Below, piece after piece: positions 4,495 through 46,898 of a DNA stretch of 64,000 nucleotides. The translations under genes and the position numbers were made by a program. Below the pieces are notes generated by a model. The model was not told the origin of the DNA and searched no databases. It saw only the letters and a list, made by a program, of their open reading frames with translations. The stretch is from Chloroflexota bacterium. Lineage in GTDB: Bacteria > Chloroflexota > Dehalococcoidia > Lucifugimonadales > UBA2985. The first letter of the stretch is position 1, and each line of letters opens with the position of its first letter. The stretch is taken from NCBI GenBank assembly GCA_043816345.1, contig JBDRIA010000064.1, positions 9,759 to 73,758 on the forward strand. Direction: 5' to 3'.

Positions 4495-6234
4495 CTAGAA
4501 TTGCTTGTAGCGGTTGACGATGGGGAAACGCCGGTCACGTCCGAAGGCCCGTGGGGTGATCGTGACTCCGGGGGGAGCCTGGCGACGCTTGTACTCGTTG
4601 CGGATCACCATGGTGATGACCTTCTGGACTGTCTCTGTGTCGAAGCCCATGTCCACGATGTCGGCGAAGCTACGGTCTTCTTCCACGTAGGCATGGAGGA
4701 TGGGGTCCAGGACTTCGTAGGGGGGAAGAATGTCCTGGTCAGTCTGATTGGGTTTTAGCTCGGCGGTGGGGACCTTCTCGATCACACTGAGTGGGATGAC
4801 GTTCTTGGGCTTGCCCTTCCGTCCGAGGAAGGGCTTGCCGTGGGCGTTACGGTGCCTGGATAGTTGGTATACCAGGGTCTTGGGCACGTCCTTTATGACT
4901 GCAAAGCCTCCGGCCATATCGCCGTAGAGGGTGGCGTAGCCGGTGGCCATCTCGCTTTTGTTGCCGGTGGTGAGGACCATCCAGCCGAACTTGTTGGATA
5001 GGCCCATGAGGATATTACCCCTAATGCGGGTCTGGAGGTTCTCTTCGGCGACGTCGGGCTGGGTGCCTTTGAAGGGGTCGGAAAGCATGTGCAGCATGGC
5101 TTCAAAGGCCTCTTCTATGGGGACTGTTATCATCTCCATGCCGAGGTTGTGGGCCAGGGCCTGGGCATCCAGGAGGCTGCCTTCGGAGGAGTACCGCGAG
5201 GGCATGGCTACTCCCAGGACGTTATCCTTGCCCAGGGCGTCTACGGCGACTGCCGCGGTAAGGCTAGAGTCTACTCCCCCGGAGAGTCCGATGATGACTT
5301 TCTGGAAGCCGCACTTGCGTACGTAGTCCCTGGTGCCCACGACGAGAGCGGAGTATACCTCTTGGAGGGGAGCCAGGGAGTCGCAGATGTGGGAGGTTAT
5401 GGCTGTTTTGGGCTGTCCTGGGGTGTAGTCGGAGTGGTGCACTATCTGAGGGATGCCTATGGTCTCCAGGACGGGGCGCTCCTTGCGGGGCCGGGGGTCG
5501 CGAAGGCGATAGTTGAAGACGGCGTCCACGTCCAGGTCGACCACCACCAGGTCTTCTTCGAACTGCTTTCCCCGGGCCACCATTTCTCCCCTCTGGTCGA
5601 AGGCCATGCTGCCGCCGTCGAAGACCAGCTCGTCCTGCCCTCCTACCATGTTGGTGTAGGAGACGTATACCTCGTTGTCGGAAGCCCGGGTGGCGACCAT
5701 TCGCTCCGTGAAGCCTCGCTTGCCTGCGTAGTAAGGGGAGGCGTTGATGTTGACGATGACCTCGGCGCCGGCCTCTCGCTGCACCGCGGCGGGGCCGAGG
5801 GCATACCAGATGTCCTCGCAGATGTTGACACCTATGTGGATGCCGTTGATGACGAAGACGGGGCAGTGTTCGCCGGTCTTGAAGTAGCGGTCCTCGTCGA
5901 AGACGCCGTAGGTGGGCAGGTACATCTTGTGGTAGATGCCCAGGAGGTGGCCGTCGTGGGCGATGGCGGCGGCGTTGTGGATGTCGCCCTGGGAGTCCAC
6001 GAAGCCGACTACGACGGTGATGCCCTGGGAGTGGGCTACTACCTGGTGCATCTTCTGGATGTTGGCCTGGATGAAGGAGGGCTGGAAGAGCAGATCCTCC
6101 GGGGGGTAGCCGGTGATGGCCATCTCGGGGAAGGCCACGAGGTCGGCCTGCTGGGCTTTGGCCCTTTGGATGTAGTCCAGGACCTTGGCGGTGTTGCCAT
6201 CCAGGTCGCCGACGGTGGCGTTAATCTGGGCCAT
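4495..6234 (-). CDS. nadE: Glutamine-dependent NAD+ synthetase (nitrilase-like CN hydrolase domain plus NAD synthase domain)
   Basis: ORF 4495..6294. N-terminal CN-hydrolase domain (LVAFPEMAITGYPPEDL, CEDIW) and C-terminal PP-loop (GLSGGVDSS). Start moved to MAQINATVGD (complement 6232..6234). An extended -10-like TGCTATACT sits just upstream on the minus strand. Confidence 0.93.
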   Translation of the reverse strand: MAQINATVGDLDGNTAKVLDYIQRAKAQQADLVAFPEMAITGYPPEDLLFQPSFIQANIQKMHQVVAHSQGITVVVGFVDSQGDIHNAAAIAHDGHLLGIYHKMYLPTYGVFDEDRYFKTGEHCPVFVINGIHIGVNICEDIWYALGPAAVQREAGAEVIVNINASPYYAGKRGFTERMVATRASDNEVYVSYTNMVGGQDELVFDGGSMAFDQRGEMVARGKQFEEDLVVVDLDVDAVFNYRLRDPRPRKERPVLETIGIPQIVHHSDYTPGQPKTAITSHICDSLAPLQEVYSALVVGTRDYVRKCGFQKVIIGLSGGVDSSLTAAVAVDALGKDNVLGVAMPSRYSSEGSLLDAQALAHNLGMEMITVPIEEAFEAMLHMLSDPFKGTQPDVAEENLQTRIRGNILMGLSNKFGWMVLTTGNKSEMATGYATLYGDMAGGFAVIKDVPKTLVYQLSRHRNAHGKPFLGRKGKPKNVIPLSVIEKVPTAELKPNQTDQDILPPYEVLDPILHAYVEEDRSFADIVDMGFDTETVQKVITMVIRNEYKRRQAPPGVTITPRAFGRDRRFPIVNRYKQF

Positions 6235-6435
6235 GGCCAGGCGTAGTGTGCGCAAGCTGTCTGCTCCGTCGCCTTTTGGCCAAGAGTATAGCATACCTGG
6301 GCTTACGTTGAGCCAGGCGGGCTGTTGAGCAGGTCGGGAAGGGTGGGGTTTTGATTGTCTGGGGATTTTTCATTTTTATGGGTGCTCTGGAAGCTGGAAA
6401 GGGGTACGCGGTTTGATTGTATGGCAGGGCGTGCC

Positions 6436-6492
6436 CTGCACCCACATTTGACTGGTGCTGTACTGGTCTGATCATGTTCTGTAGTTTCAAGG
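6436..6492. repeat. 57-nt direct repeat, copy 1 (in the nadE 5' region)
   Basis: ctgcacccacatttgactg... matches copy 2 at 6816..6872 at about 43 of 57 positions by eye. The first 19 nt are identical. Confidence 0.8.
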
Positions 6493-6774
6493 TGTCGACC
6501 CAGGTGGCTTGTGCACGATGTCTGTGAGGCGGGACTGGATGTACTGAGAGGCGATGAGGCGGGCCAGGAGATCCAGGTAGAGGCGGCGCAGTCGCACACG
6601 GGAGGGCCTGGAGATGTGTTTCATGTGCTGGCGCAGGAGGAGGTTTCGAAAGACGGGATGGAGGGCGAGGTCGGCGTACAAGAGCTTTAGCTGCCGGGAG
6701 CGGCGGCCTGTTTTGAGGGCATTAAGATTGCCTGTGGGCGCGCCGGCGCCGGGTCGTTTTCCTCCGCGTGTCAT
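6487..6774 (-). CDS. Small basic hypothetical protein (MTRGGKRPGAGAPTGNLNALKTGRRS...)
   Basis: ORF 6487..6855. The N-terminal 27 codons are repeat-encoded, so the start was moved to the internal Met. I cannot assign a family. Arg/Lys-rich. Confidence 0.35.
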   Translation of the reverse strand: MTRGGKRPGAGAPTGNLNALKTGRRSRQLKLLYADLALHPVFRNLLLRQHMKHISRPSRVRLRRLYLDLLARLIASQYIQSRLTDIVHKPPGSTP

Positions 6775-6815
6775 GGGCAGCAGGGTTTCCTCCTTCGACA
6801 GGCTCAGGACAGGCT

Positions 6816-6872
6816 CTGCACCCACATTTGACTGTCGTTGCACTGGTTTATCCATGTTCTACGATTCCAGGG
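6816..6872. repeat. 57-nt direct repeat, copy 2 (in the 5' region of the small ORF 6487..6774)
   Basis: See copy 1. It is immediately preceded by a family-A GC-rich repeat (6792..6815). Confidence 0.8.
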
Positions 6873-6914
6873 CGTTGGTCTGAGCAGGTGAAGTGGGATG
6901 ATACGATTATGCGC

Positions 6915-6955
6915 GGGCGGGGGCGTGGTGGGGAAGGGGTGGGTGGCAGGGGGGG
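6915..6955 (+). other. G-quadruplex-prone tract (six G3-G7 runs within 41 nt)
   Basis: gggcgggggcgtggtggggaaggggtgggtggcaggggggg, read directly from the sequence. A second cluster of G-runs lies at 6987..7012, overlapping a TTGACG-N17-TAGGCT promoter-like pair. Confidence 0.6.
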
Positions 6956-7060
6956 CATGGTGCAAAAACAGCCCAGTTGACGCGTTGGAGGGGGTGGGGT
7001 AGGCTACGGGGGCGAGATAACGATGCCCGTTTGGAGCGACTTCGAGGGAGGTTGGTTAGG

Positions 7061-8290
7061 ATGCCGAAAGGGTTCATTTTCAAATGCACCAACAAATCTG
7101 AGAGCGAATGCTTTGACAGGTCTCTTTTCGGGACAGACAAGCTGGCTGGCGACGAAGTGTTATGCCTGGAGCCTGGTGATAGCTTGTTCTTACTGAATGT
7201 AGAGAGCAACAGGCTAGCGGGTGTTTTTCTGGCCGAAACAGCTGGGGGACACAGGCTCATTCCCGAAGCATGGAAGGGTCGATATCCCTATCAAGTGAAG
7301 ATAGAGTGTATTGACCAACCAAAGTGGATTGAGAACGCGAAGGAAACCCTGTCTGCACTACAGTTGGAGTCCCACCAGCCTCTTGATTATTATGAAGTGG
7401 ATGCACTGAGTACCCTGCTCGCTCCCAACGGAAAGCAAGACCAATGCTCAGACCGGGAGGAAAACGCTACAACCCTGGTGAAACAGATAGCAGAGGAGCT
7501 TGCGGTCTGGCGGAGAACCAATGGCACAGCTCATGTTAGAAAAGACAAACCCACGCTCGAATCCACTACTCTTTGGGACTATCCGACGCAAAGCTACGGC
7601 CAAACACCAAAAGGTAACAACAAGTATGCAGGGGTAACCCCAGCGTTCATTATTTGGAACCTTGTGAAGCGATATACAGAGCGAGATGATCTTGTCGTGG
7701 ACCCGATGTGCGGCAGTGGAACGACTATTGATGTATGCAATGAAGAGGGAAGAAGGGTCAAAGGCTATGACATTGTTCCTACTCGCCCAGATATCATAGA
7801 GAACGACGCGAGAAGCATCCCATTGGACGACAACACGGTGGACATGGTGTTTATAGATTCCCCATATGGAGACAACATAAAGTACAATGCCAGTCCACTG
7901 TCATTTGGCAACATCTCCGCTGAGAGCGAGGAGTTCTACAACGAGCTTGAGAAAGTGATGAGAGAGGCCCACCGAGTACTGAAAGAAGGGAAAGTGCTGG
8001 GGTGGTTGATAGGCGACCAGTGGGTAAAGAAACGATTTACTCCTGTTGGTTTCAAGATATACGAACGATTGACTAAATACTTTGAGCCTGTGGATGTCAT
8101 AAGTGTGGTGAGGAGAGGCCAAAGCTCCAATACGGGGCTGTGGCACAATCGAGCGCGGCGGTTCAATTTCTACCTACGCGGCTTTAAGTACCTGCACATC
8201 ATGCGGAAACCCTTGGAGAAAAGCGCCCAACCCGAGCGCAAAAGAGATGTCAAATGGGCTTACTATGAGAGAGGTTCAAACAAGGACTAG
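7061..8290 (+). CDS. DCD/PUA-like N-terminal domain fused to a SAM-dependent amino-methyltransferase (N6A/N4C-type)
   Basis: ORF 6977..8290. Start placed at the ATG at 7061 behind gagggagg. The N-terminal motifs GFIFKCTNKSESECFDRSLFG, LFLLNVESNRLAGVFLAETAGG and IPEAW..YPYQVKIE match the hallmark motifs of the DCD domain. The C-terminal half carries motif I (VVDPMCGSGTT), NDARSIPLDDNTVDMVFIDSPYG (motif IV, D-S-P-Y) and RVLKEGKVLGWLIGD. Confidence 0.75.
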   Translation: MPKGFIFKCTNKSESECFDRSLFGTDKLAGDEVLCLEPGDSLFLLNVESNRLAGVFLAETAGGHRLIPEAWKGRYPYQVKIECIDQPKWIENAKETLSALQLESHQPLDYYEVDALSTLLAPNGKQDQCSDREENATTLVKQIAEELAVWRRTNGTAHVRKDKPTLESTTLWDYPTQSYGQTPKGNNKYAGVTPAFIIWNLVKRYTERDDLVVDPMCGSGTTIDVCNEEGRRVKGYDIVPTRPDIIENDARSIPLDDNTVDMVFIDSPYGDNIKYNASPLSFGNISAESEEFYNELEKVMREAHRVLKEGKVLGWLIGDQWVKKRFTPVGFKIYERLTKYFEPVDVISVVRRGQSSNTGLWHNRARRFNFYLRGFKYLHIMRKPLEKSAQPERKRDVKWAYYERGSNKD

Positions 8291-8307
8291 CGGAAGGTCT
8301 GCTCATA

Positions 8308-9006
8308 ATGAACTATGCCGATTTGGTGGTCATCTTCGAGAAGTGGAGAACACAGCACGAACTTAATACTTACCGTTACACCTCAGCCATACTAGCAGAA
8401 GCCAAAGAGGTTCACCACGCCGACTGGTTAAAGCACCCCACTGCTAGTGGTGACCATGAACAGTCTTGGAGGGCATTTAAGGGGAAGAACCTTGAGAAGC
8501 TAATCACCCATATAATCCAGAGGGAGGTCAGGGAATTAGGGCTCGAAATCATACAAGGAAACACTTTAGAGCGTTCTCAGCCGAACAACTTATCTGATGT
8601 ATTGAACCAAGTTAGGCGTAATCTCCTGGTCAGGTTCGGTGCACAAGGAGAATTCGGCTTTCATCTGCCTGACATTGACATTGTTATCTACAATCCCAGT
8701 ACCAGTCAGGTAGTAGCAGTAGTCTCCAGTAAGGTAACGCTGCGAGAGCGGATAGCCCAGACGGGATACTGGAAGATCAAGTTGTCTCAAGACAAGACTA
8801 CAAAGGACATAAAAGTGTTCTTCATCAGCCCTGACGAGGATGGGACACTGACAAAACGATCCCCGATGAAAAAGGGAAGGGCGATTGTGGAGACAGATAT
8901 CGACGGTGCCTACGTGATGACAGAGGAGACCATTGAAGCGAGCGACAAGGTCAAAAGTCTTGACCAGTTCATTTCCGACCTTAGGAAGCTCATTAACACT
9001 GCATAG
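8308..9006 (+). CDS. Putative type II restriction endonuclease (PD-(D/E)XK-like core)
   Basis: Lies 18 nt downstream of the methyltransferase in the same low-GC block. The candidate catalytic core LPDIDIVIY...VVAVVSSKVTLRERIAQ has the pattern PD...(S/E)xK followed by T.RER, seen in several type II REase families. I cannot name the exact family. Confidence 0.5.
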   Translation: MNYADLVVIFEKWRTQHELNTYRYTSAILAEAKEVHHADWLKHPTASGDHEQSWRAFKGKNLEKLITHIIQREVRELGLEIIQGNTLERSQPNNLSDVLNQVRRNLLVRFGAQGEFGFHLPDIDIVIYNPSTSQVVAVVSSKVTLRERIAQTGYWKIKLSQDKTTKDIKVFFISPDEDGTLTKRSPMKKGRAIVETDIDGAYVMTEETIEASDKVKSLDQFISDLRKLINTA

Positions 9007-9046
9007 TCAGAATGTTCATGGCATCACAATTAACCTCTTATCCCCA

Positions 9047-9187
9047 TCATTCAAGTACTTTTATGACCAGCTCGCCGGGTTCAATCCTCGCTTGATATAC
9101 GAATTCGTTGGCCTTCACGAGTTTGGCTTTCTTCAAGAAGGTTTGAAGATCCTCTATTGATAGTCTTAGCTCCCTTTCATTATCCAT
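9047..9187 (-). CDS. Small hypothetical protein (46 aa, MDNERELRLSIEDLQTFLKKAKL...)
   Basis: Internal Met of ORF 9047..9283, preceded by ggagggtgag. A TTGACA/ATAATC-like promoter pair lies on the minus strand at 9284..9311. No recognisable family. Confidence 0.3.
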   Translation of the reverse strand: MDNERELRLSIEDLQTFLKKAKLVKANEFVYQARIEPGELVIKVLE

Positions 9188-9455
9188 TATCTCACCCTCC
9201 TGCTTGTTTATCTGAGGTGGATCCCAAAAACCGGACCGGTGGTTAAGATCGGGTGTTGCTCCTAGACCATCTGTTCGCACCAAGATTATCCGTTTCCGTG
9301 TAAAATGTCAAGAGTTTCTTAGGGAATTTTAGGGGCAGCTTCGTGGAGAGCACAAGTCGCACGCCGGTGGGTTTTCGCTGCAATTGACAGTGGGATGGGC
9401 TGACCATAGAATGGGCGTATTCGGGGGAGGAGGGATATTCCGCTTATGGTTCGAT

Positions 9456-9661
9456 CCTTCGGCTAGCTCAGGGTAAACTAGGCTCAGAGCTTGTGAAGAA
9501 ATCCCGGACTCGGCATACGGGGGGGCCCCACCCCAGATTGCCACGGGCGAGGACGCCCTCGCAATGACAATTTCATCACAGGCTCAGGGTGAGCGGAACT
9601 TAAAGCTGGTGGGGGCTGGAATTCGGCGGAGCAGCACCCTTCGGCAGACTCAGGGCAGGCT
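9456..9661. repeat. Cluster of short GC-rich dispersed repeats (families A and D)
   Basis: Family A core CCTTCGGCNNNCTCAGGG at 9456..9484 and 9638..9661. Family D hairpin ATTGC-cacGGGCGaggaCGCCCtc-GCAATGACAATT at 9537..9570. Confidence 0.8.
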
Positions 9662-9685
9662 GTGGGACGGTAAGGAGATTGCATC

Positions 9686-9925
9686 GTGGTGACTAAGGCT
9701 TATGTGCTAATAGAGACGGCGGTGGGCAAGACCAAGGATGTGCTCAGAACCCTCAGGCAGGTGAAGGGGGTCAGGGAGGCCGACGCGGTGACGGGGGAGT
9801 ACGACATTGTGGCTGTTGTGGAGGCGGATAATCTGAACAGCATTGGTGAACTGGTGACTGGGAATATCCACACCATCGGAGGGATACAGCGCACGGCGAC
9901 CTATCTCGCGGTGAGCGTGGACTAA
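9686..9925 (+). CDS. Stand-alone Lrp/AsnC ligand-binding (RAM) domain protein
   Basis: 79-aa product KAYVLIETAVGKTKDVLRTLRQVKGVREADAVTGEYDIVAVVEADNLNSIGELV, typical of AsnC_trans_reg-only proteins. GTG start. Confidence 0.8.
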   Translation: MVTKAYVLIETAVGKTKDVLRTLRQVKGVREADAVTGEYDIVAVVEADNLNSIGELVTGNIHTIGGIQRTATYLAVSVD

Positions 9926-9977
9926 GGGCTGCGACCCCCACCAGGTATGGTGAGGCGCGGGGTGAGATGGGCAAGGG

Positions 9978-10328
9978 GTGCGTATGGCTGAGGAGTGCAT
10001 CTTCTGCAGAATCGGACGGGGGGAGATCCCCAGCGATATTCTGTATCGTGACGATAGGGCATTTGTTATCCGGGACATAAACCCCAGGGCACCAACCCAT
10101 CTTCTGGTACTACCCGCTGAGCATGTGACGTACCTTGCCTCCTTTACCCAGGACCGAGAACCTCTCCTGGGACATCTTATGATGGTGGCAAGGGAGATGG
10201 CCCAGCGCGAGGGGCTGACGGAGGGGGGGTACCGGTTGGTGATTAACCAGGGGTTGGACGCGGGGCAGGAGGTGCCCCATCTGCACCTGCATATCCTGGG
10301 AGGTCGTCGTCTGGGGGCCATGGGGTGA
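9978..10328 (+). CDS. HIT (histidine triad) family nucleotide hydrolase
   Basis: CIFCRI...HLLVLP...QEVPHLHLHILGG histidine-triad motif. Confidence 0.9.
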   Translation: MRMAEECIFCRIGRGEIPSDILYRDDRAFVIRDINPRAPTHLLVLPAEHVTYLASFTQDREPLLGHLMMVAREMAQREGLTEGGYRLVINQGLDAGQEVPHLHLHILGGRRLGAMG

Positions 10329-10329
10329 T

Positions 10330-10530
10330 CCTTCGACAGGTCCGACTTCGTCGAGACTCTCGACCCCGATTCCATCGGGGTCGGAGCTCAGGACAGGGGA
10401 CCGAAGAGGCCGCCCCACCAGGTTGCCACGCTCGGGGACTCGCTCGCAACGACAATTGATACACAGGTTTTCAGGATGACCCTTCGACAGGCTCAGGATG
10501 GTGGTTCGACAAGCTCACCATGAGCGGGGG
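10330..10530. repeat. Cluster of short GC-rich dispersed repeats (families A, B, C and D)
   Basis: Family A CCTTCGACAGG at 10330, starting 2 nt after the HIT stop codon. Family C hairpin GACCCCGAttccaTCGGGGTC at about 10362..10382. Family D GTTGC...GCAACGACAATT at 10422..10457. A+B tandem ccttcgacaggctcaggatggtGGTTCGACAAGCTCACCATGAGCGG at 10483..10527. Confidence 0.8.
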
Positions 10531-10562
10531 AGTTACAGTCAAGGGGATGGGCCTTGGCAATT

Positions 10563-10874
10563 GATGAGGCAACGCTAGGGGACGATGGGATTCATATCCT
10601 GTGGGATGACGGACATGCTAGCTTTTATCCCCACAGGTAGCTGAGAGGCCATTGCTGCTGTGCCGCGTGCGTGGAGGAGTTGACGGGTCGGCGGAGGGTG
10701 GCGGAGGAGGATGTGAGGGAGGATGTCCGGGCGCTGGACTGGATTCAGGTAGGTCGGTACGCGGTGCGGTTCCTGTGGAGCGATAGCCACGATTCCGGCA
10801 TTTACCCCTTTGATTTGCTGCGGAAGCTGTGCCGCTGCCCCCGGTGTTTTGCCAGGGAAGCCGACACGGGATAG
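10563..10874 (+). pseudogene. DUF971-family protein interrupted by an in-frame TAG
   Basis: Reading from ATG 10563 gives MEATLGDDGIHILWDDGHASFYPHR*LRGHCCCAACVEELTGRR..., continuing into ORF 10671..10874 (VRFLWSDSHDSGIYPFDLLR). The TAG at 10638..10640 occupies the position where the family has an aromatic residue in the W/YLR..C.C..C motif. Confidence 0.7.
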
Positions 10875-11016
10875 GTTACCCCCACAGATAGTAATGGGTA
10901 GCCGTTGTCCTTGACACTGCTCCCTATCTGGCATTAACATAAAATGATGCCCCCAATGCCAGGGGCACGAGAATTTCCGGGCTGATTAGCCTGGACAGAA
11001 AGGGAGGTGAAGGACA

Positions 11017-12543
11017 GTGGATGCGTTGATAATTGTCCTCGCCGTCCTGGGCGGCCTAGGGGTAGGGGGAGCAACGGGGTTCTTTTTCAGAGCTAGCGTC
11101 TTTGGTAGAAGGGTGAAGCATGCCGAGGAGGAGGTTTCTCGCATGCTGGAGGAGGCGGAGGAACAGCGGAAGGCGACCCTCTTGGAGGCCAAGGAGGAGG
11201 CCCTAAATATCCGCACCTCGGCGGAGGCGGACCTGAGGGAACGGCGCTCAGAGCTGCAACGTCAGGAGAGGAGGTTGGCTAACCGAGAGGAGAATTTGGA
11301 GCGGCGCTCGGATAACCTGGATAAAAGGGAAAAGAGCCAGGCTACCCGGGAGAGGGAGTTGGAACAAGGGCACGCTCAACTGGAGGCGATGAAGCACCAG
11401 GAGACAGAGATCCTTGAGAATCTCTCGTCTCTATCTGTCAGCGATGCCAGAGAGCTTCTCCTGAGGAAGGCCGAGGAGGAGATCCAGTACGAGGTGGCCC
11501 GCCGCTATCGGGATATTGAGCAGCTTGCTAGAGTTGAGGCCGACCAGAAAGCCCGCAAGGTGCTGACTCTAGCCATTCATCGTCTGGCTTCCGATGTGGT
11601 CTCTGAGAACACCGTTAAAGCAATCCCCCTTCCCAATGACGACATGAAAGGTCGTCTTATAGGGCGCGAGGGACGGAATATTCGCGCTATAGAGAGTGCA
11701 ACAGGGGTAGATCTGATCATAGACGATACCCCTGAGGCCGTTACCATTTCCTGCTTTGATCCCGTCCGGCGGGAAGTGGCACGACAGGCCATAACCAAGC
11801 TCATTGCGGATGGCAGGATCCATCCGGCCCGGATAGAGGAGGTGGTGGAGAAGGCGCGCCAGGAGGTGGAGGAGGATATTCGTGAGGAGGGAGAGAAGGC
11901 CGTCTTCGATGCAAAGATACGGGGCCTGAACCCGGATCTGGTCAAGCTACTTGGCCGGCTGAAGTACCGCTACAGCTACGGAGAGAATATTCTTCAGCAC
12001 AGTGTGCAGGTCTCCGTATTGTCAGGCATGATCGCCGCGGAGATTGGCGCTAACGTAGAGGTGGCAAAAGTGGCAGGGCTCCTGCACGACATCGGGAAGG
12101 CCATGAGCCACGAAACAGAGGGTCCCCACGCGGAGATCGGTGCCGAGGTGGCCCATAAGTATGGAATACCAGCCGAGATAGAGCAGGCCATAAGTGAGCA
12201 TCACGACGAGGAACGGGGGTCCGTAGAGGCTTTCATAGTCGCTGCGGCGGATGCCATAAGCGCGGCCCGCCCCGGATCTCGCAGAGATACCCTGGAGCAT
12301 TACGCCAAGAGACTGGAGGCCCTGGAGGAGGTGGCACTCAGTTTCCCAGGGGTGGAGAAGTGCTACGCTATCCAAGCGGGCCGAGAGGTGCGTATTCTGG
12401 TCAAATCCGCTGAGGTCGATGACGTGACGGCCTCCAAGCTGGCCCGGGATGTGGTGAAAAAGATCGAGGATACCCTGGTATACCCGGGCCTGATAAAGGT
12501 CACGGTGATCCGTGAGACTCGTTCGGTGGAATACGCTCGCTAG
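11017..12543 (+). CDS. rny: Ribonuclease Y
   Basis: N-terminal TM helix, long coiled coil, KH domain ([15 protein letters not shown]) and HD domain (LLHDIGKA). Confidence 0.95.
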
Positions 12544-15643: not shown

Positions 15644-15719
15644 GGGGCTGTAGCTCAGCTGGGAGAGTGCCTCAATGGCATTGAGGAAGTCGAGGGTTCG
15701 AGTCCCTCCAGCTCCACCA
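15644..15719 (+). tRNA. tRNA-Ala (anticodon GGC), CCA encoded
   Basis: Folds by hand into a 76-nt cloverleaf. Acceptor GGGGCTG/CAGCTCC carries the G3:U70 Ala identity pair. Anticodon arm cctca-atGGCat-tgagg. T arm gaggg-ttcgagt-ccctc. 3' ACCA. Confidence 0.93.
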
Positions 15720-44402: not shown

Positions 44403-45746
44403 GTGACGACCAAGACCAGGGAACAGAGCCGGGAATATGTGCTCAAGACGGCAAAGGAGCAGGACGTAAAGTTCATACAGCTGTGGTTCACCGACATCCT
44501 GGGTATGCTAAAGAGCTTTGCCATCACAGTGGAGGAGCTTGAGGGTGCCCTGGAGGAAGGGATGGGTTTTGACGGGTCTTCTATCCAGGGTTTTGCCAGG
44601 ATTGACGAGAGCGACATGATGGCCCTGCCGGACCCCGATACCTTCCGTCTCCTCCCCTGGAGGCCCGAGGAGCGCAATGCTGTGGCCAGGATGTTCTGCG
44701 ACATCTTGAAGCCGGGCGGTGAGCCCTTCGAAGGAGATCCCAGGTATGTCCTGAAGAGAAATCTGAAGCGGGCAGCAGACAAGGGCTATACGTTCTACGT
44801 GGGGCCTGAACTGGAGTACTTCTATTTCCGGGATTCGAAGGGAACCGAGCCCCTGGATGAGGGGGGCTATTTTGACTGCACTCCTCTGGACGCAGCTAAT
44901 GATCTCAGGAGAGAGACGGTTCTTATGCTGGAGGAGATGGGCATTGGCGTTGAGTATTCTCACCATGAAGTTGCCGCCAGCCAGCACGAGATAGATATGA
45001 GATACACCGATGCCCTGACCATGGCCGACAATGTGATGACCTACCGACTGATAGTCAAGCAAATAGCTCTAAAGAACGGGGTTTATGCTACCTTTATGCC
45101 CAAACCTGTTTTCGGCATCAATGGCAGTGGCATGCATGTGCACCAGTCACTGTTCAAAGACGGGAGAAACGCTTTCTTTGATGTCAATGACCCATATCAT
45201 CTCTCCAGCGTGGCCAAGCATTATTTGGCCGGACTACTGAAACATGCTCCTGAAATCACATCTGTCTGTAACCAATGGGTCAACTCCTACAAGCGGTTGG
45301 TACCCGGCTACGAAGCGCCGGTATACCTTTCCTGGGCGCGGCGGAATCGGTCAGACCTGGTCAGGGTTCCGGAGTATAAGCCTGGCAAAGAGAACTCTAC
45401 CAGGGTAGAGTTCAGGTCACCTGACCCAGCGTGTAACCCTTATCTCGTCTTCAGCGTAATGCTGGCTGCTGGGCTGGCAGGAATCGAGAAGGAATACGAA
45501 GTTCCAATCCCCGTAGAAGAGAACGTGTATGAGATGACGAAAGAGGAAAGGGAGGGAAAGGGGATAGAGACTCTGCCTGCTAGTCTATGGGAAGCCATCC
45601 TTCTGACCCGGCAAAGTGAACTGGTGCGCGAGGTCCTTGGCGATCACGTTTTTTATGCCTTCCTTAGAAACAAGGAGATAGAGTGGAATAGCAATCGTAC
45701 TCAGGTCACTGAGTATGAGATTAAGAACTACCTACCGATACTTTAG
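44403..45746 (+). CDS. glnA: Glutamine synthetase, type I
   Basis: GTG start behind aaaggaga. VKFIQLWFTDILG, GFDGSSI, GPELEYF, HHEVAASQHEID, NGSGMHVHQS, RVPE. Confidence 0.95.
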   Translation: MTTKTREQSREYVLKTAKEQDVKFIQLWFTDILGMLKSFAITVEELEGALEEGMGFDGSSIQGFARIDESDMMALPDPDTFRLLPWRPEERNAVARMFCDILKPGGEPFEGDPRYVLKRNLKRAADKGYTFYVGPELEYFYFRDSKGTEPLDEGGYFDCTPLDAANDLRRETVLMLEEMGIGVEYSHHEVAASQHEIDMRYTDALTMADNVMTYRLIVKQIALKNGVYATFMPKPVFGINGSGMHVHQSLFKDGRNAFFDVNDPYHLSSVAKHYLAGLLKHAPEITSVCNQWVNSYKRLVPGYEAPVYLSWARRNRSDLVRVPEYKPGKENSTRVEFRSPDPACNPYLVFSVMLAAGLAGIEKEYEVPIPVEENVYEMTKEEREGKGIETLPASLWEAILLTRQSELVREVLGDHVFYAFLRNKEIEWNSNRTQVTEYEIKNYLPIL

Positions 45747-45902
45747 CCAACGCATAGGAAATACAGGAGTTTGCACTGGCCCTAGACACTGCTCGCTTGA
45801 GTCTATGCCCGGGTGTCTGGGTCTACATGGCATGGTTTTGCCTTTCACGGAGAGGGTGATAGAATGGTCGTGATCCTTTGGGAAGGACAGTGAAAGGTTA
45901 GC

Positions 45903-46898
45903 ATGCTGCAGGATACGATTTCCGACGCAGAAAAGAAGATCATAACCATTCTCAGAGTTCTGAGCGAATCCCCTGGGCCGATGGGGTCCATTGCCATCGC
46001 GCGAGAACTGGAGCACCATGGCGTTTACCTGAGCGAGAGAGCCGTCAGATACCACCTGAAAACAACAGACGAGAGGGGTTTCACCATTCCTCTAGGACGA
46101 GACGGCAGGATGATCACTGCCGAGGGACTCGAAGAGCAGCAGCTGGCGCTGGCTCCCCAACAGTTAAGCTTCATGCGGCACAGGCTTGAGTTGCTGGCTT
46201 TTCTTACCACCTTTGACCCAGAGAAACGGACGGGCCAGGTTCCCATAAACACGTCCCTCATCGACAAGGAGCGATTTACCGAGGCCCTTACAGCCATGAG
46301 GGATACGTTCAAGGCGGGGTTGTGCGCCAGTGAGCTAGTGGCAACGGCGCAAGAAGGGGGGAAACTTGGCGATGTGGTCATCCCAAAGGGCAAAGTGGGT
46401 CTGGCCACAGTTTGCAGTGTAGTCATAAACGGGGTACTGCTCAAACGCGGTGTCCCTACGGAATCTAAGTTCGGAGGGGTACTCGAAATCAGGCACCAGA
46501 GGCCCCGACGCTTTGTAGCGATGATCGAGTATGGTGGCACTTCCCTGGACCCCTCTGAGCAGTACATTCGTGCCAAGATGACCAGTGTAAACCAGGCTGT
46601 CAGCACAGGCAGCGGCAGGATACTTGCCAATTTCAGGGAGATGCCTGGGCCTGCCAGGCCAGTCGTTGAGGAAGTCGTTCCAATGCTCAAAGCGGCTGGC
46701 TTTGGAGGGATCTACCTCCTGGGCAATACCAGTGAGTCGATCTGCCAGATTGCGGTGGGATTGAACCGAATCGGTATGGTGCTCGTCGGTGGACTCAACC
46801 CACTGGCTGCTGCAACGGAGGCGGGGATCGAGGTTGAAAACGTGGGTGAAAGCGGCACCGTCGATTTTGAGCAGATGGTCAGCTTCTTGGATCTCTGA
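45903..46898 (+). CDS. nrpR: NrpR-type nitrogen regulatory repressor (winged helix plus one NrpR/DUF128 domain)
   Basis: ILRVLSESPGPMGSIAIARELEHHGVYLSERAVRYHLKTTDERGFT...GRDGRMITAEGLEE matches the N-terminal pattern of methanogen NrpR proteins. The remainder looks like a single NRD domain. Sits next to glnA. Confidence 0.8.
   Translation: MLQDTISDAEKKIITILRVLSESPGPMGSIAIARELEHHGVYLSERAVRYHLKTTDERGFTIPLGRDGRMITAEGLEEQQLALAPQQLSFMRHRLELLAFLTTFDPEKRTGQVPINTSLIDKERFTEALTAMRDTFKAGLCASELVATAQEGGKLGDVVIPKGKVGLATVCSVVINGVLLKRGVPTESKFGGVLEIRHQRPRRFVAMIEYGGTSLDPSEQYIRAKMTSVNQAVSTGSGRILANFREMPGPARPVVEEVVPMLKAAGFGGIYLLGNTSESICQIAVGLNRIGMVLVGGLNPLAAATEAGIEVENVGESGTVDFEQMVSFLDL

Follow-up and report, generated by a model that had tools for sequence, protein, structure and literature searches.

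Bell, Wolf and Koonin (BMC Biol 2020; PMC7641849) assigned the DCD (development and cell death) domain to the PUA superfamily, as an EVE-like member. According to that paper, the domain is often fused to a methyltransferase, and a PD-(D/E)XK nuclease gene usually follows the fusion. The paper also places relatives of DCD and EVE in modification-dependent systems, infers a base-reading role for the family, proposes that the fused enzyme adds supplementary methylation to already-modified DNA, and calls prokaryotic DCD domains rare and mostly archaeal or hyperthermophilic. Later papers found by a literature search cited this work only in their reference lists. We analyzed a 64,000-nucleotide stretch of a Chloroflexota bacterium contig (JBDRIA010000064.1, assembly GCA_043816345.1; hereafter the window, to which all positions refer) that carries such a pair: gene A, in which an N-terminal DCD domain is joined to a Rossmann-fold methyltransferase, and directly downstream gene B, which encodes a PD-(D/E)XK nuclease. 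We found no structural difference between this pair and those of Bell et al., and among the members of this widespread architecture, described computationally in 2020, the locus is typical. What goes beyond the available text of that paper is the assignment of the nuclease to the BsaWI/CCGG family, the recognition of the methylase as a permuted N6/N4 enzyme, and the abundance of the pair in metagenomes. The locus is, with high probability, a restriction-modification (R-M) cassette with a CCGG-family nuclease.

Gene A begins at the ATG at 7061 (MPKGFIFKC...), inside a longer plus-strand open reading frame (ORF; 6977-8290), and this start agrees with the N-termini of its homologues. An earlier note, made from the letters of the window, had drawn attention to the same two genes. 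The pair itself stood, while the 18-nt spacer given for it proved to be 17 nt (8291-8307). All the motifs quoted in the note were found in the translations: GFIFKCTNKSESECFDRSLFG, LFLLNVESNRLAGVFLAETAGG, IPEAWKGRYPYQVKIE, DPMCGSGTT and FIDSPYG in gene A, and the core LPDIDIV...SSKVTLRER in gene B. Both proteins are already correctly named in NCBI, where the product of gene A is identical to an entry (P0001) called 'DNA methyltransferase [Chloroflexota bacterium]' and that of gene B to one called 'BsaWI family type II restriction enzyme'. The type II methylase models of PADLOC matched gene A; neither PADLOC nor NCBIfam offered a model for the nuclease of gene B.

The characterized CCGG-family relatives of the gene B nuclease cut unmodified DNA. 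The active site of BsaWI consists of E92, D145 and K165, and the CCGG reader of the family is an R-(D/E)-R motif, which is contiguous in BsaWI (PMC4652773). A Pfam search of gene B returned RE_BsaWI (PF18643) at aa 98-204 with 102.4 bits, well over the gathering cut-off of 26.2 (E 1.7e-29), in keeping with the claim of the earlier note that the neighbor is a PD-(D/E)XK type II restriction enzyme. When gene B was used as a single sequence to search the PDB by phmmer, nothing was found; only a profile built from 35 nuclease homologues reached BsaWI (4zsf, E 5e-5). In the resulting alignment, E92, D145 and K165 of BsaWI fell on E63, D122 and K142 of gene B, and R169-D170-R171 fell on the contiguous R146-E147-R148, which starts at K+4 as it does in BsaWI. 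Gene B also has the P121-D122 and S140-x-K142 elements. E147, R148, K142 and S140 were invariant among the 35 homologues, and D122 and E63 were nearly so. Gene B thus resembles BsaWI (W/CCGGW) and the other CCGG-family enzymes (NgoMIV, Cfr10I, Bse634I, SgrAI, AgeI) in its PF18643 match and its E...PD...(S)xK arrangement; it differs from BsaWI in length (232 versus 272 aa) and in that the similarity appears at the profile level only.

Relatives of both proteins were numerous. A search of a 90%-clustered protein collection gave 3590 relatives of the methylase at E <=1e-3, the nuclease had 3775 relatives, and at least 407 loci encoding the methylase were found when one genome per species was considered. 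The hosts included Dehalococcoidia, Bathyarchaeia, Nitrososphaerales, Thermodesulfovibrio, Archaeoglobales, Nanoarchaeota and others. Among the matches listed, which were 57-100% identical, PF10539 and PF01555 occurred together in 120 of 120 methylase relatives. The suggestion of the earlier note that the fusion of a DCD domain to a methylase is unusual is contradicted by these numbers and by Bell et al. (PMC7641849), and the rarity stated there for prokaryotic DCD domains is itself outdated by metagenomic data.

For locus-level comparisons we kept 80 of the at least 407 loci found, all from species-level genomes. A BsaWI-family gene stood beside the methylase in 47 of the 80; it was immediately downstream on the same strand at a distance of 6-290 nt in 45 of them, and convergent in the other 2, both of which carry a divergent family member. 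In 8 of the 45 loci the nuclease belonged to a second subfamily, which shares only 30-37% identity with the enzyme of the window yet retains the core PD...CK(T/A)S(L/V)RERxAQ; the convergent genes of the other 2 loci have diverged further still. The methylases that precede the second subfamily show no unusual divergence (55-57% identity). The nuclease evolves or is exchanged faster than the methylase. No nuclease was detected in 28 loci with enough downstream sequence, most of them from Nitrososphaera, and their downstream genes were heterogeneous. Most copies from Nitrososphaera and related Thermoproteota are orphans (L012, L014, L015, L028, L042, L044, L051, L055-L066, L070, L079 and L080); their methylases keep the DCD domain together with its conserved residues, and they show no avoidance of CCGG. 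One locus (L067) has kept a 41-aa remnant of the nuclease. A survey of archaeal R-M systems reported a persistent orphan m4C (N4-methylcytosine) methylase group, 'HG21', that has no assigned site and occurs in every Nitrososphaera genome surveyed, 5 of 5 (PMC10609329). The DCD-methylase orphans of Nitrososphaera might be this group.

We then asked how often CCGG occurs in these genes by shuffling synonymous codons within each gene, so that the protein and its codon usage stayed fixed. The 42 nuclease-linked methylase genes contained 36 CCGG sites where 79 were expected (observed/expected, O/E, 0.45; z -6.3), and the 42 nuclease genes contained 10 where 23 were expected (O/E 0.43; z -3.7), as against 156 observed and 140 expected in 28 orphan methylase genes (O/E 1.11; z +2.0); the genes in each set are phylogenetically related and not independent, so these z-scores overstate the evidence for CCGG. 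A dinucleotide model agreed: among the 16 four-base palindromes, CCGG showed the strongest depletion in the cassettes and the strongest enrichment in the orphans. The result supports CCGG without proving it, and together with the R-E-R alignment it makes a CCGG core the probable target of the system. Flanking DNA pooled from 46 nuclease-positive loci and from 33 orphans differed in the same direction (O/E 0.71 versus 1.17), a contrast that is confounded by taxon because many other palindromes differ too, and they revealed no preference for particular bases at the flanks of xCCGGx.

The earlier note had proposed that the C-terminal part of gene A is a DNA-type amino-methyltransferase, and the Pfam search returned N6_N4_Mtase (PF01555; 78.4 bits, E 1e-21) as two stretches in permuted order. 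Motif I (DPMCGSGTT) occupies aa 214-222 and motif IV aa 266-269, the latter as DSPY, a variant with serine in place of the first proline of (D/N/S)PP(Y/F). In the alignment with TTHA0409 (2zie), residues 189-254 of the query lay on chain positions 216-282 (motif I) and residues 255-325 on chain positions 36-105 (motif IV). Since the Pfam and 2zie segments are both swapped, the core is a circularly permuted form of the beta-class layout: its motifs run X-I-III and then IV-VIII, not in the beta order of IV-VIII, target-recognition domain (TRD), X-I-III. By sequence, then, it is a permuted relative of the beta-class N6/N4 methylases and not a strict member of the class. It shares motif I (FxGxG) and a (D/S)PPY-type motif IV with the beta-class enzymes TTHA0409, M.PvuII, M.RsrI, M.MboIIA and CcrM, and it departs from them in having motif I before motif IV, the DSPY variant, no internal TRD and an added DCD domain at the N-terminus. 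Searched against the PDB, a profile built from the core and related sequences reached TTHA0409 at 1e-19, two N4-cytosine DNA methylases at 1e-12, and M.MboIIA, M.RsrI, CcrM and DpnA at 1e-5 to 1e-9.

At its N-terminal end the core has an invariant loop, TTLWDYPxQSYG..KGNNKY.GVTP. Outside the DCD clade, the core's closest relatives (40-49% identity, 240-370 aa) lack an N-terminal domain and carry nothing beyond low-complexity tails; they share the loop as TTLWDYPSQxYG...G(A/V)TP and mostly have DPPY as motif IV. This DCD-less family of permuted N6/N4 methylases (P0250; loci L081-L084) gave 4765 matches, with members of 230-290 aa. The four loci examined, from myxobacterial and other genomes, lie in housekeeping neighborhoods near PrkA or JmjC/ROXA-like genes, and no BsaWI-like gene was found nearby in any of the four. 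A 234-aa gene downstream of one of them (L081) was considered as a nuclease and discarded, having no similarity to the nuclease profile. We also noted that in one core relative of 627 aa (P0257) the motif IV region is preceded by a LAGLIDADG_3 domain (aa 327-383), which may be an intein or a homing-endonuclease insertion in the methylase gene.

The N-terminus of gene A matched Dev_Cell_Death (PF10539) at aa 4-89 with 61.9 bits against a gathering cut-off of 27.8 (E 6.8e-17), as the earlier note had anticipated. An AlphaFold2 model of aa 1-125 was predicted with a mean local confidence (pLDDT) of 91.6 and a global score (pTM) of 0.86, and its predicted strands and helices come in the order expected of the DCD fold. 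In Foldseek the best PDB matches of this model were two EVE proteins, PH1033 and MJECL36, and numerous YTH domains that bind m6A, with TM-scores of 0.65-0.73 and a probability of 1.00. A PUA-like N-terminal domain is thus supported by sequence and by predicted fold. Across 75 homologues, C17, D40, F43, L44, N46, G54 and Q78 were invariant and W71 (W/F), Y75 and Y77 nearly so, and the same residues were conserved in the nuclease-linked and the orphan copies. Identity across the same homologues was 44% in the DCD domain, 73% in the core and 15-21% in the linker, the length of which varied from 23 to 57 aa. In a full-length model the linker forms one predicted helix (132-153) between low-confidence segments (pLDDT <50 at aa 124-131 and from 157). 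This model had a pTM of only 0.57, and the conserved loop at aa 157-191 also had a pLDDT <50. Such a pattern in a predicted structure fits two domains on a tether, with a DNA-contact loop that would become ordered only on DNA.

Taken together, the locus would be a self-contained, horizontally mobile type II R-M cassette in which the downstream endonuclease cleaves sites that have CCGG at their core and the upstream cognate amino-methyltransferase protects them. The ORF listing of the low-GC island that holds the two genes has no second methylase, so the enzyme of gene A must protect alone; likewise, a two-gene cassette that moves between phyla must by itself protect unmodified DNA. The product would most likely be N4-methylcytosine within CCGG, with N6-methyladenine at a flanking position as a further possibility. 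The methylase core may be a complete enzyme by itself, with the loop TTLWDYPxQSYG..KGNNKY as the likely element for DNA contact and target recognition. The DCD-less relatives with the same loop, the variable and poorly conserved linker and the low pLDDT all point to the DCD domain as an accessory module tethered by a flexible linker of variable length, and on balance we favor this role, by a modest degree, over that of the primary target-recognition domain. Because orphans that lack the nuclease keep the DCD residues, the domain would serve methylation and not control of the nuclease. Known members of this fold bind flipped single bases, not duplex sequence, and the EVE/YTH-like fold with its conserved aromatic and polar residues (W71, Y75, Y77, F43, N46, D40, Q78) suggests a base reader. 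Its most likely role would be to bind a flipped-out methylated base, namely the product of the same enzyme on the parental strand, and so keep the catalytic domain in place on DNA that is hemimethylated or partly methylated. Such a coupling of reader and writer would bias the enzyme toward maintaining methylation on self DNA and away from methylating incoming DNA de novo. That the DCD domain reads the enzyme's own mark is a tentative proposal, to which we give appreciably less than an even chance; the explanation as a whole, from the R-M cassette through CCGG to the tethered reader, comes a little closer to even but still falls short of it.

Several observations weigh against this explanation, apart from the relatedness of the gene sets given above. 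The active site's proposed second acidic residue, D175 in BsaWI (K+10) and E201 in NgoMIV, has no counterpart in gene B, which has T152 at that place beside an invariant Q151 and no acidic residue anywhere from K+9 to K+13; the invariant D124 might substitute for it. GATC, GTAC, ACGT and GGCC are low in the nuclease-linked hosts as well as CCGG. The window as a whole shows no avoidance of CCGG or of any NCCGGN hexamer, an uninformative outcome, as would be expected for a recent acquisition. An aromatic cage in the DCD domain is inferred from conservation and fold only. A cassette that arrives in a new phylum has to methylate unmethylated DNA, so a preference for hemimethylated sites cannot be absolute. 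The four DCD-less relatives are orphans in housekeeping neighborhoods, and they fall short of proving that the core alone methylates DNA with sequence specificity. Literature searches turned up neither biochemical work nor a methylome for any member of the family. Finally, the DCD domain occupies the topological position of the TRD in the permuted enzyme, which counts against an accessory role.

This last point belongs to a different explanation, that the DCD domain is a target-recognition or DNA-clamping domain that reads the unmodified site and senses no modification. The permutation places the domain between motif VIII and motif X, where the beta-class TRD sits, so that the order DCD, linker, X-I-II-III, IV-VIII equals the beta order opened at the TRD; the core of ~245 aa has no other insert large enough for a classical TRD, and the DCD domain was kept in 120 of 120 best homologues and in the orphans. 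Yet homologous cores that have no N-terminal domain retain the same N-terminal loop, and the linker of 23-57 aa is poorly conserved and predicted to be flexible, unlike that of a rigidly docked TRD. Moreover, the DCD domain diverges faster than the core (44% against 73%) although the CCGG motif of the nuclease is fixed, and the single-base binding of the fold does not suit the reading of duplex sequence. We therefore regard a TRD role as rather unlikely. A regulatory role, in which the domain binds its own promoter or mRNA according to methylation state, delays the nuclease and so replaces a missing C protein, could draw on the fact that no C gene or helix-turn-helix (HTH) gene accompanies the cassette. 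It also has a precedent in M.SsoII and M.Ecl18kI, methylases with N-terminal regulatory domains whose partner nucleases recognize the related CCNGG. However, orphans without any nuclease keep the DCD domain and all its conserved residues, the window has no CCGG within 160 nt upstream of the methylase gene, and this fold is not known to bind operators; we consider such a role very unlikely.

The model of Bell et al., in which the DCD domain recognizes DNA that bears another modification and the methylase adds a supplementary methyl group that shields it from the linked nuclease, was proposed from the same gene arrangement, and relatives of DCD and EVE are found in modification-dependent systems (PMC7641849). 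Against it, the present cassette consists of two genes only: the small flanking ORFs are not conserved and the island has no second methylase. A cassette found in unrelated bacterial and archaeal phyla cannot rely on a prior modification that is specific to one host, and the nuclease is of the classical, type IIP-like CCGG family, the relatives of which cut unmodified DNA and are not modification-dependent (PMC4652773). In this respect the pair also differs from the type IV systems that join EVE, YTH or ASCH domains to McrB or to HNH or PD-(D/E)XK nucleases. The reader fold and the defense context are the same; here, however, the reader is on the methylase, and the nuclease, of 232 aa, has no extra domain and comes from a family that cuts unmodified DNA. 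We judge the supplementary-methylation model improbable for this locus. Least probable of all, and hardly to be expected, is that gene A encodes an RNA methyltransferase of the m2G type and that the pair is not a DNA R-M system. The top Foldseek match of the full-length model was Trm11 of A. fulgidus (tRNA m2G10; E 6e-9), there were weak matches to PF01170 and TIGR01177, and in eukaryotes DCD and YTH domains bind RNA (PMC7641849). Trm11 comes first in Foldseek because that program follows sequence order, and motif I precedes motif IV in Trm11 as it does here. The PF01170 match covers only the 15 residues around motif I (aa 207-221), TIGR01177 reached 28 bits against a cut-off of 316, and no THUMP domain was found in gene A. 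With the core profile, DNA methylases scored from 1e-19 to 1e-8 and Trm11 1.5e-3, which places DNA N6/N4 enzymes 5 to 16 orders of magnitude ahead. This ranking, together with a conserved adjacent BsaWI-family nuclease that has intact catalytic residues and would be lethal without a DNA methylase, argues that gene A encodes a DNA enzyme, as the earlier note had it. That note had also listed three outcomes that would count against it; what we found was a DCD match of PUA-like fold at the N-terminus, a nuclease family match in the second gene, and a methylase that does not group with the m2G enzymes.

The cassette lies in a segment of low GC content (0.456-0.512 in the windows spanning 7001-9500, versus 0.56-0.64 on either side), so the dip described in the earlier note is real, as is the G-rich tract to its left, where the GC skew reached +0.29 to +0.34 in windows covering 6251-7250 (Table 1). 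The repeat cluster reported on the right also exists; it is made of a dispersed short repeat that is not specific to the island. The 18-mer CCTTCGACAGGCTCAGGA or close variants of it were found at 6792, 9638, 10481 and 61108, with a 78% copy at 9456. Four matches within 3 mismatches were thus present in the window as compared to 0.08 expected; the consensus is CCTTCG(A/G)C(A/T)(G/A)(G/A)CTCAGG(A/G), and no more than 4 kb separates 4 of the 5 copies from the island. Rfam has no match to this repeat and no element in 5800-11200. The island edges show neither att-like direct repeats nor a tRNA, the only tRNA of the window being at 15644, and we ruled out the flanking repeats as att sites. The dip in GC and the scattered distribution of the same two-gene cassette over bacterial and archaeal phyla, at 55-66% identity, make its horizontal acquisition plausible, as had been proposed.

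Table 1. Positions and strands of the features analyzed; entries that begin with a locus number refer to the comparison loci, all others to the window.
Feature	Position	Strand	Basis
Gene A, DCD-methyltransferase, 409 aa	7061..8290	+	ORF listing, PF10539 and PF01555, homologue N-termini
Gene A layout: DCD, variable linker, circularly permuted N6/N4 DNA amino-methyltransferase core	7061..8290	+	
DCD domain (PUA-like, EVE/YTH-like), aa 1-115	7061..7405	+	Pfam, Foldseek, conservation
Variable linker, aa 116-165	7406..7555	+	Identity, length range, pLDDT
Methyltransferase core, aa 166-409	7556..8290	+	Pfam, 2zie alignment, PDB profile search
Gene B, BsaWI/CCGG-family PD-(D/E)XK type II restriction endonuclease, 232 aa	8308..9006	+	PF18643, 4zsf alignment
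Low-GC segment holding the cassette and a minus-strand ORF	7000..9500	.	Composition profile
G-rich tract directly upstream of the methylase gene	6900..7010 (about)	+	Sequence, GC skew
Second-subfamily nuclease	L024:1558-2262		
Second-subfamily nuclease	L046:7196-7918		
Second-subfamily nuclease	L047:1502-2239		
Second-subfamily nuclease	L048:4698-5405		
Second-subfamily nuclease	L050:1751-2482		
Second-subfamily nuclease	L073:1699-2409		
Divergent BsaWI-family gene, convergent (Dehalococcoidia)	L004:7276-7959	-	
Divergent BsaWI-family gene, convergent (Dehalococcoidia)	L008:7295-7990	-	

Two small minus-strand ORFs beside the cassette (9047-9283 and 6487-6774) were considered as parts of the system and set aside, since they have no Pfam match and are not conserved next to it; the former, of 47-78 aa, had no counterpart beside the cassette in the 80 other loci. 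The latter encodes 95 aa beginning MTRGGKRPGAGAPTGNLNALKTGRRS, sits between nadE and the G-rich tract, and is bracketed by direct repeats of 71 nt at 6425-6495 and 6805-6875 that are 73% identical. A sigma-70-like promoter seen by eye upstream of gene A (6977-7005, TTGACG-17-TAGGCT) failed the criteria of a promoter scan. A separate near-consensus site on the plus strand at 9384-9412 (TTGACA, 17 nt, TAGAAT; 11 of 12 positions) lies ~270 nt upstream of a small gene for an AsnC/Lrp ligand-binding domain (9686-9925). Elsewhere in the window, a 491-aa minus-strand ORF at 515-1990 resembles DnaA by eye only (GGIGLGKTHLL as Walker A and a C-terminal RDHTTIRYA), which would place the R-M island ~5 kb from a probable replication origin; the GC content of the first ~1 kb (1-1000) is 0.41-0.47. 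Between this dnaA-like ORF and an AsnC/Lrp-like gene, a plus-strand ORF of 131 aa (2372-2767) matches the rve_3 integrase core (E 3e-7) and is probably a transposase fragment. At 44403-46898 on the plus strand, glutamine synthetase is followed by a nitrogen repressor of the NrpR type (PF01995, E 9e-78, plus HTH_12), which in this Chloroflexota genome sits in a stretch of lower GC (0.50-0.56). NrpR is best known from Euryarchaeota.

In eukaryotes, UHRF1, through its SRA domain, and DNMT1 couple a reader of flipped methyl bases to a DNA methyltransferase; the mark is m5C and the two are separate proteins. The pair serves as a functional analogy for the logic proposed here. If the DCD-methylase were a self-templating reader-writer, with the DCD domain binding the m4C (or m6A) deposited by its own catalytic domain, which we consider doubtful at present, it would be the prokaryotic counterpart of UHRF1-DNMT1 within a single polypeptide. 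The preference for hemimethylated DNA that this builds into a type II methylase would then lower the accidental protection of incoming phage DNA, and the Nitrososphaera enzymes, whose nuclease has been lost, could maintain a heritable epigenetic mark. The family is large, with thousands of clusters, at least 407 species genomes and 55-80% identity across bacterial and archaeal phyla, and experiments on it could start from the CCGG core predicted here, from the conserved residues of the pocket, from the orphans found in nature and from the DCD-less relatives. A reader domain on an R-M methylase would be a clean system in which to ask if prokaryotic methylases can be biased toward maintenance, and the cassette could show what DCD domains bind, including those of the plant DCD proteins that are linked to programmed cell death.

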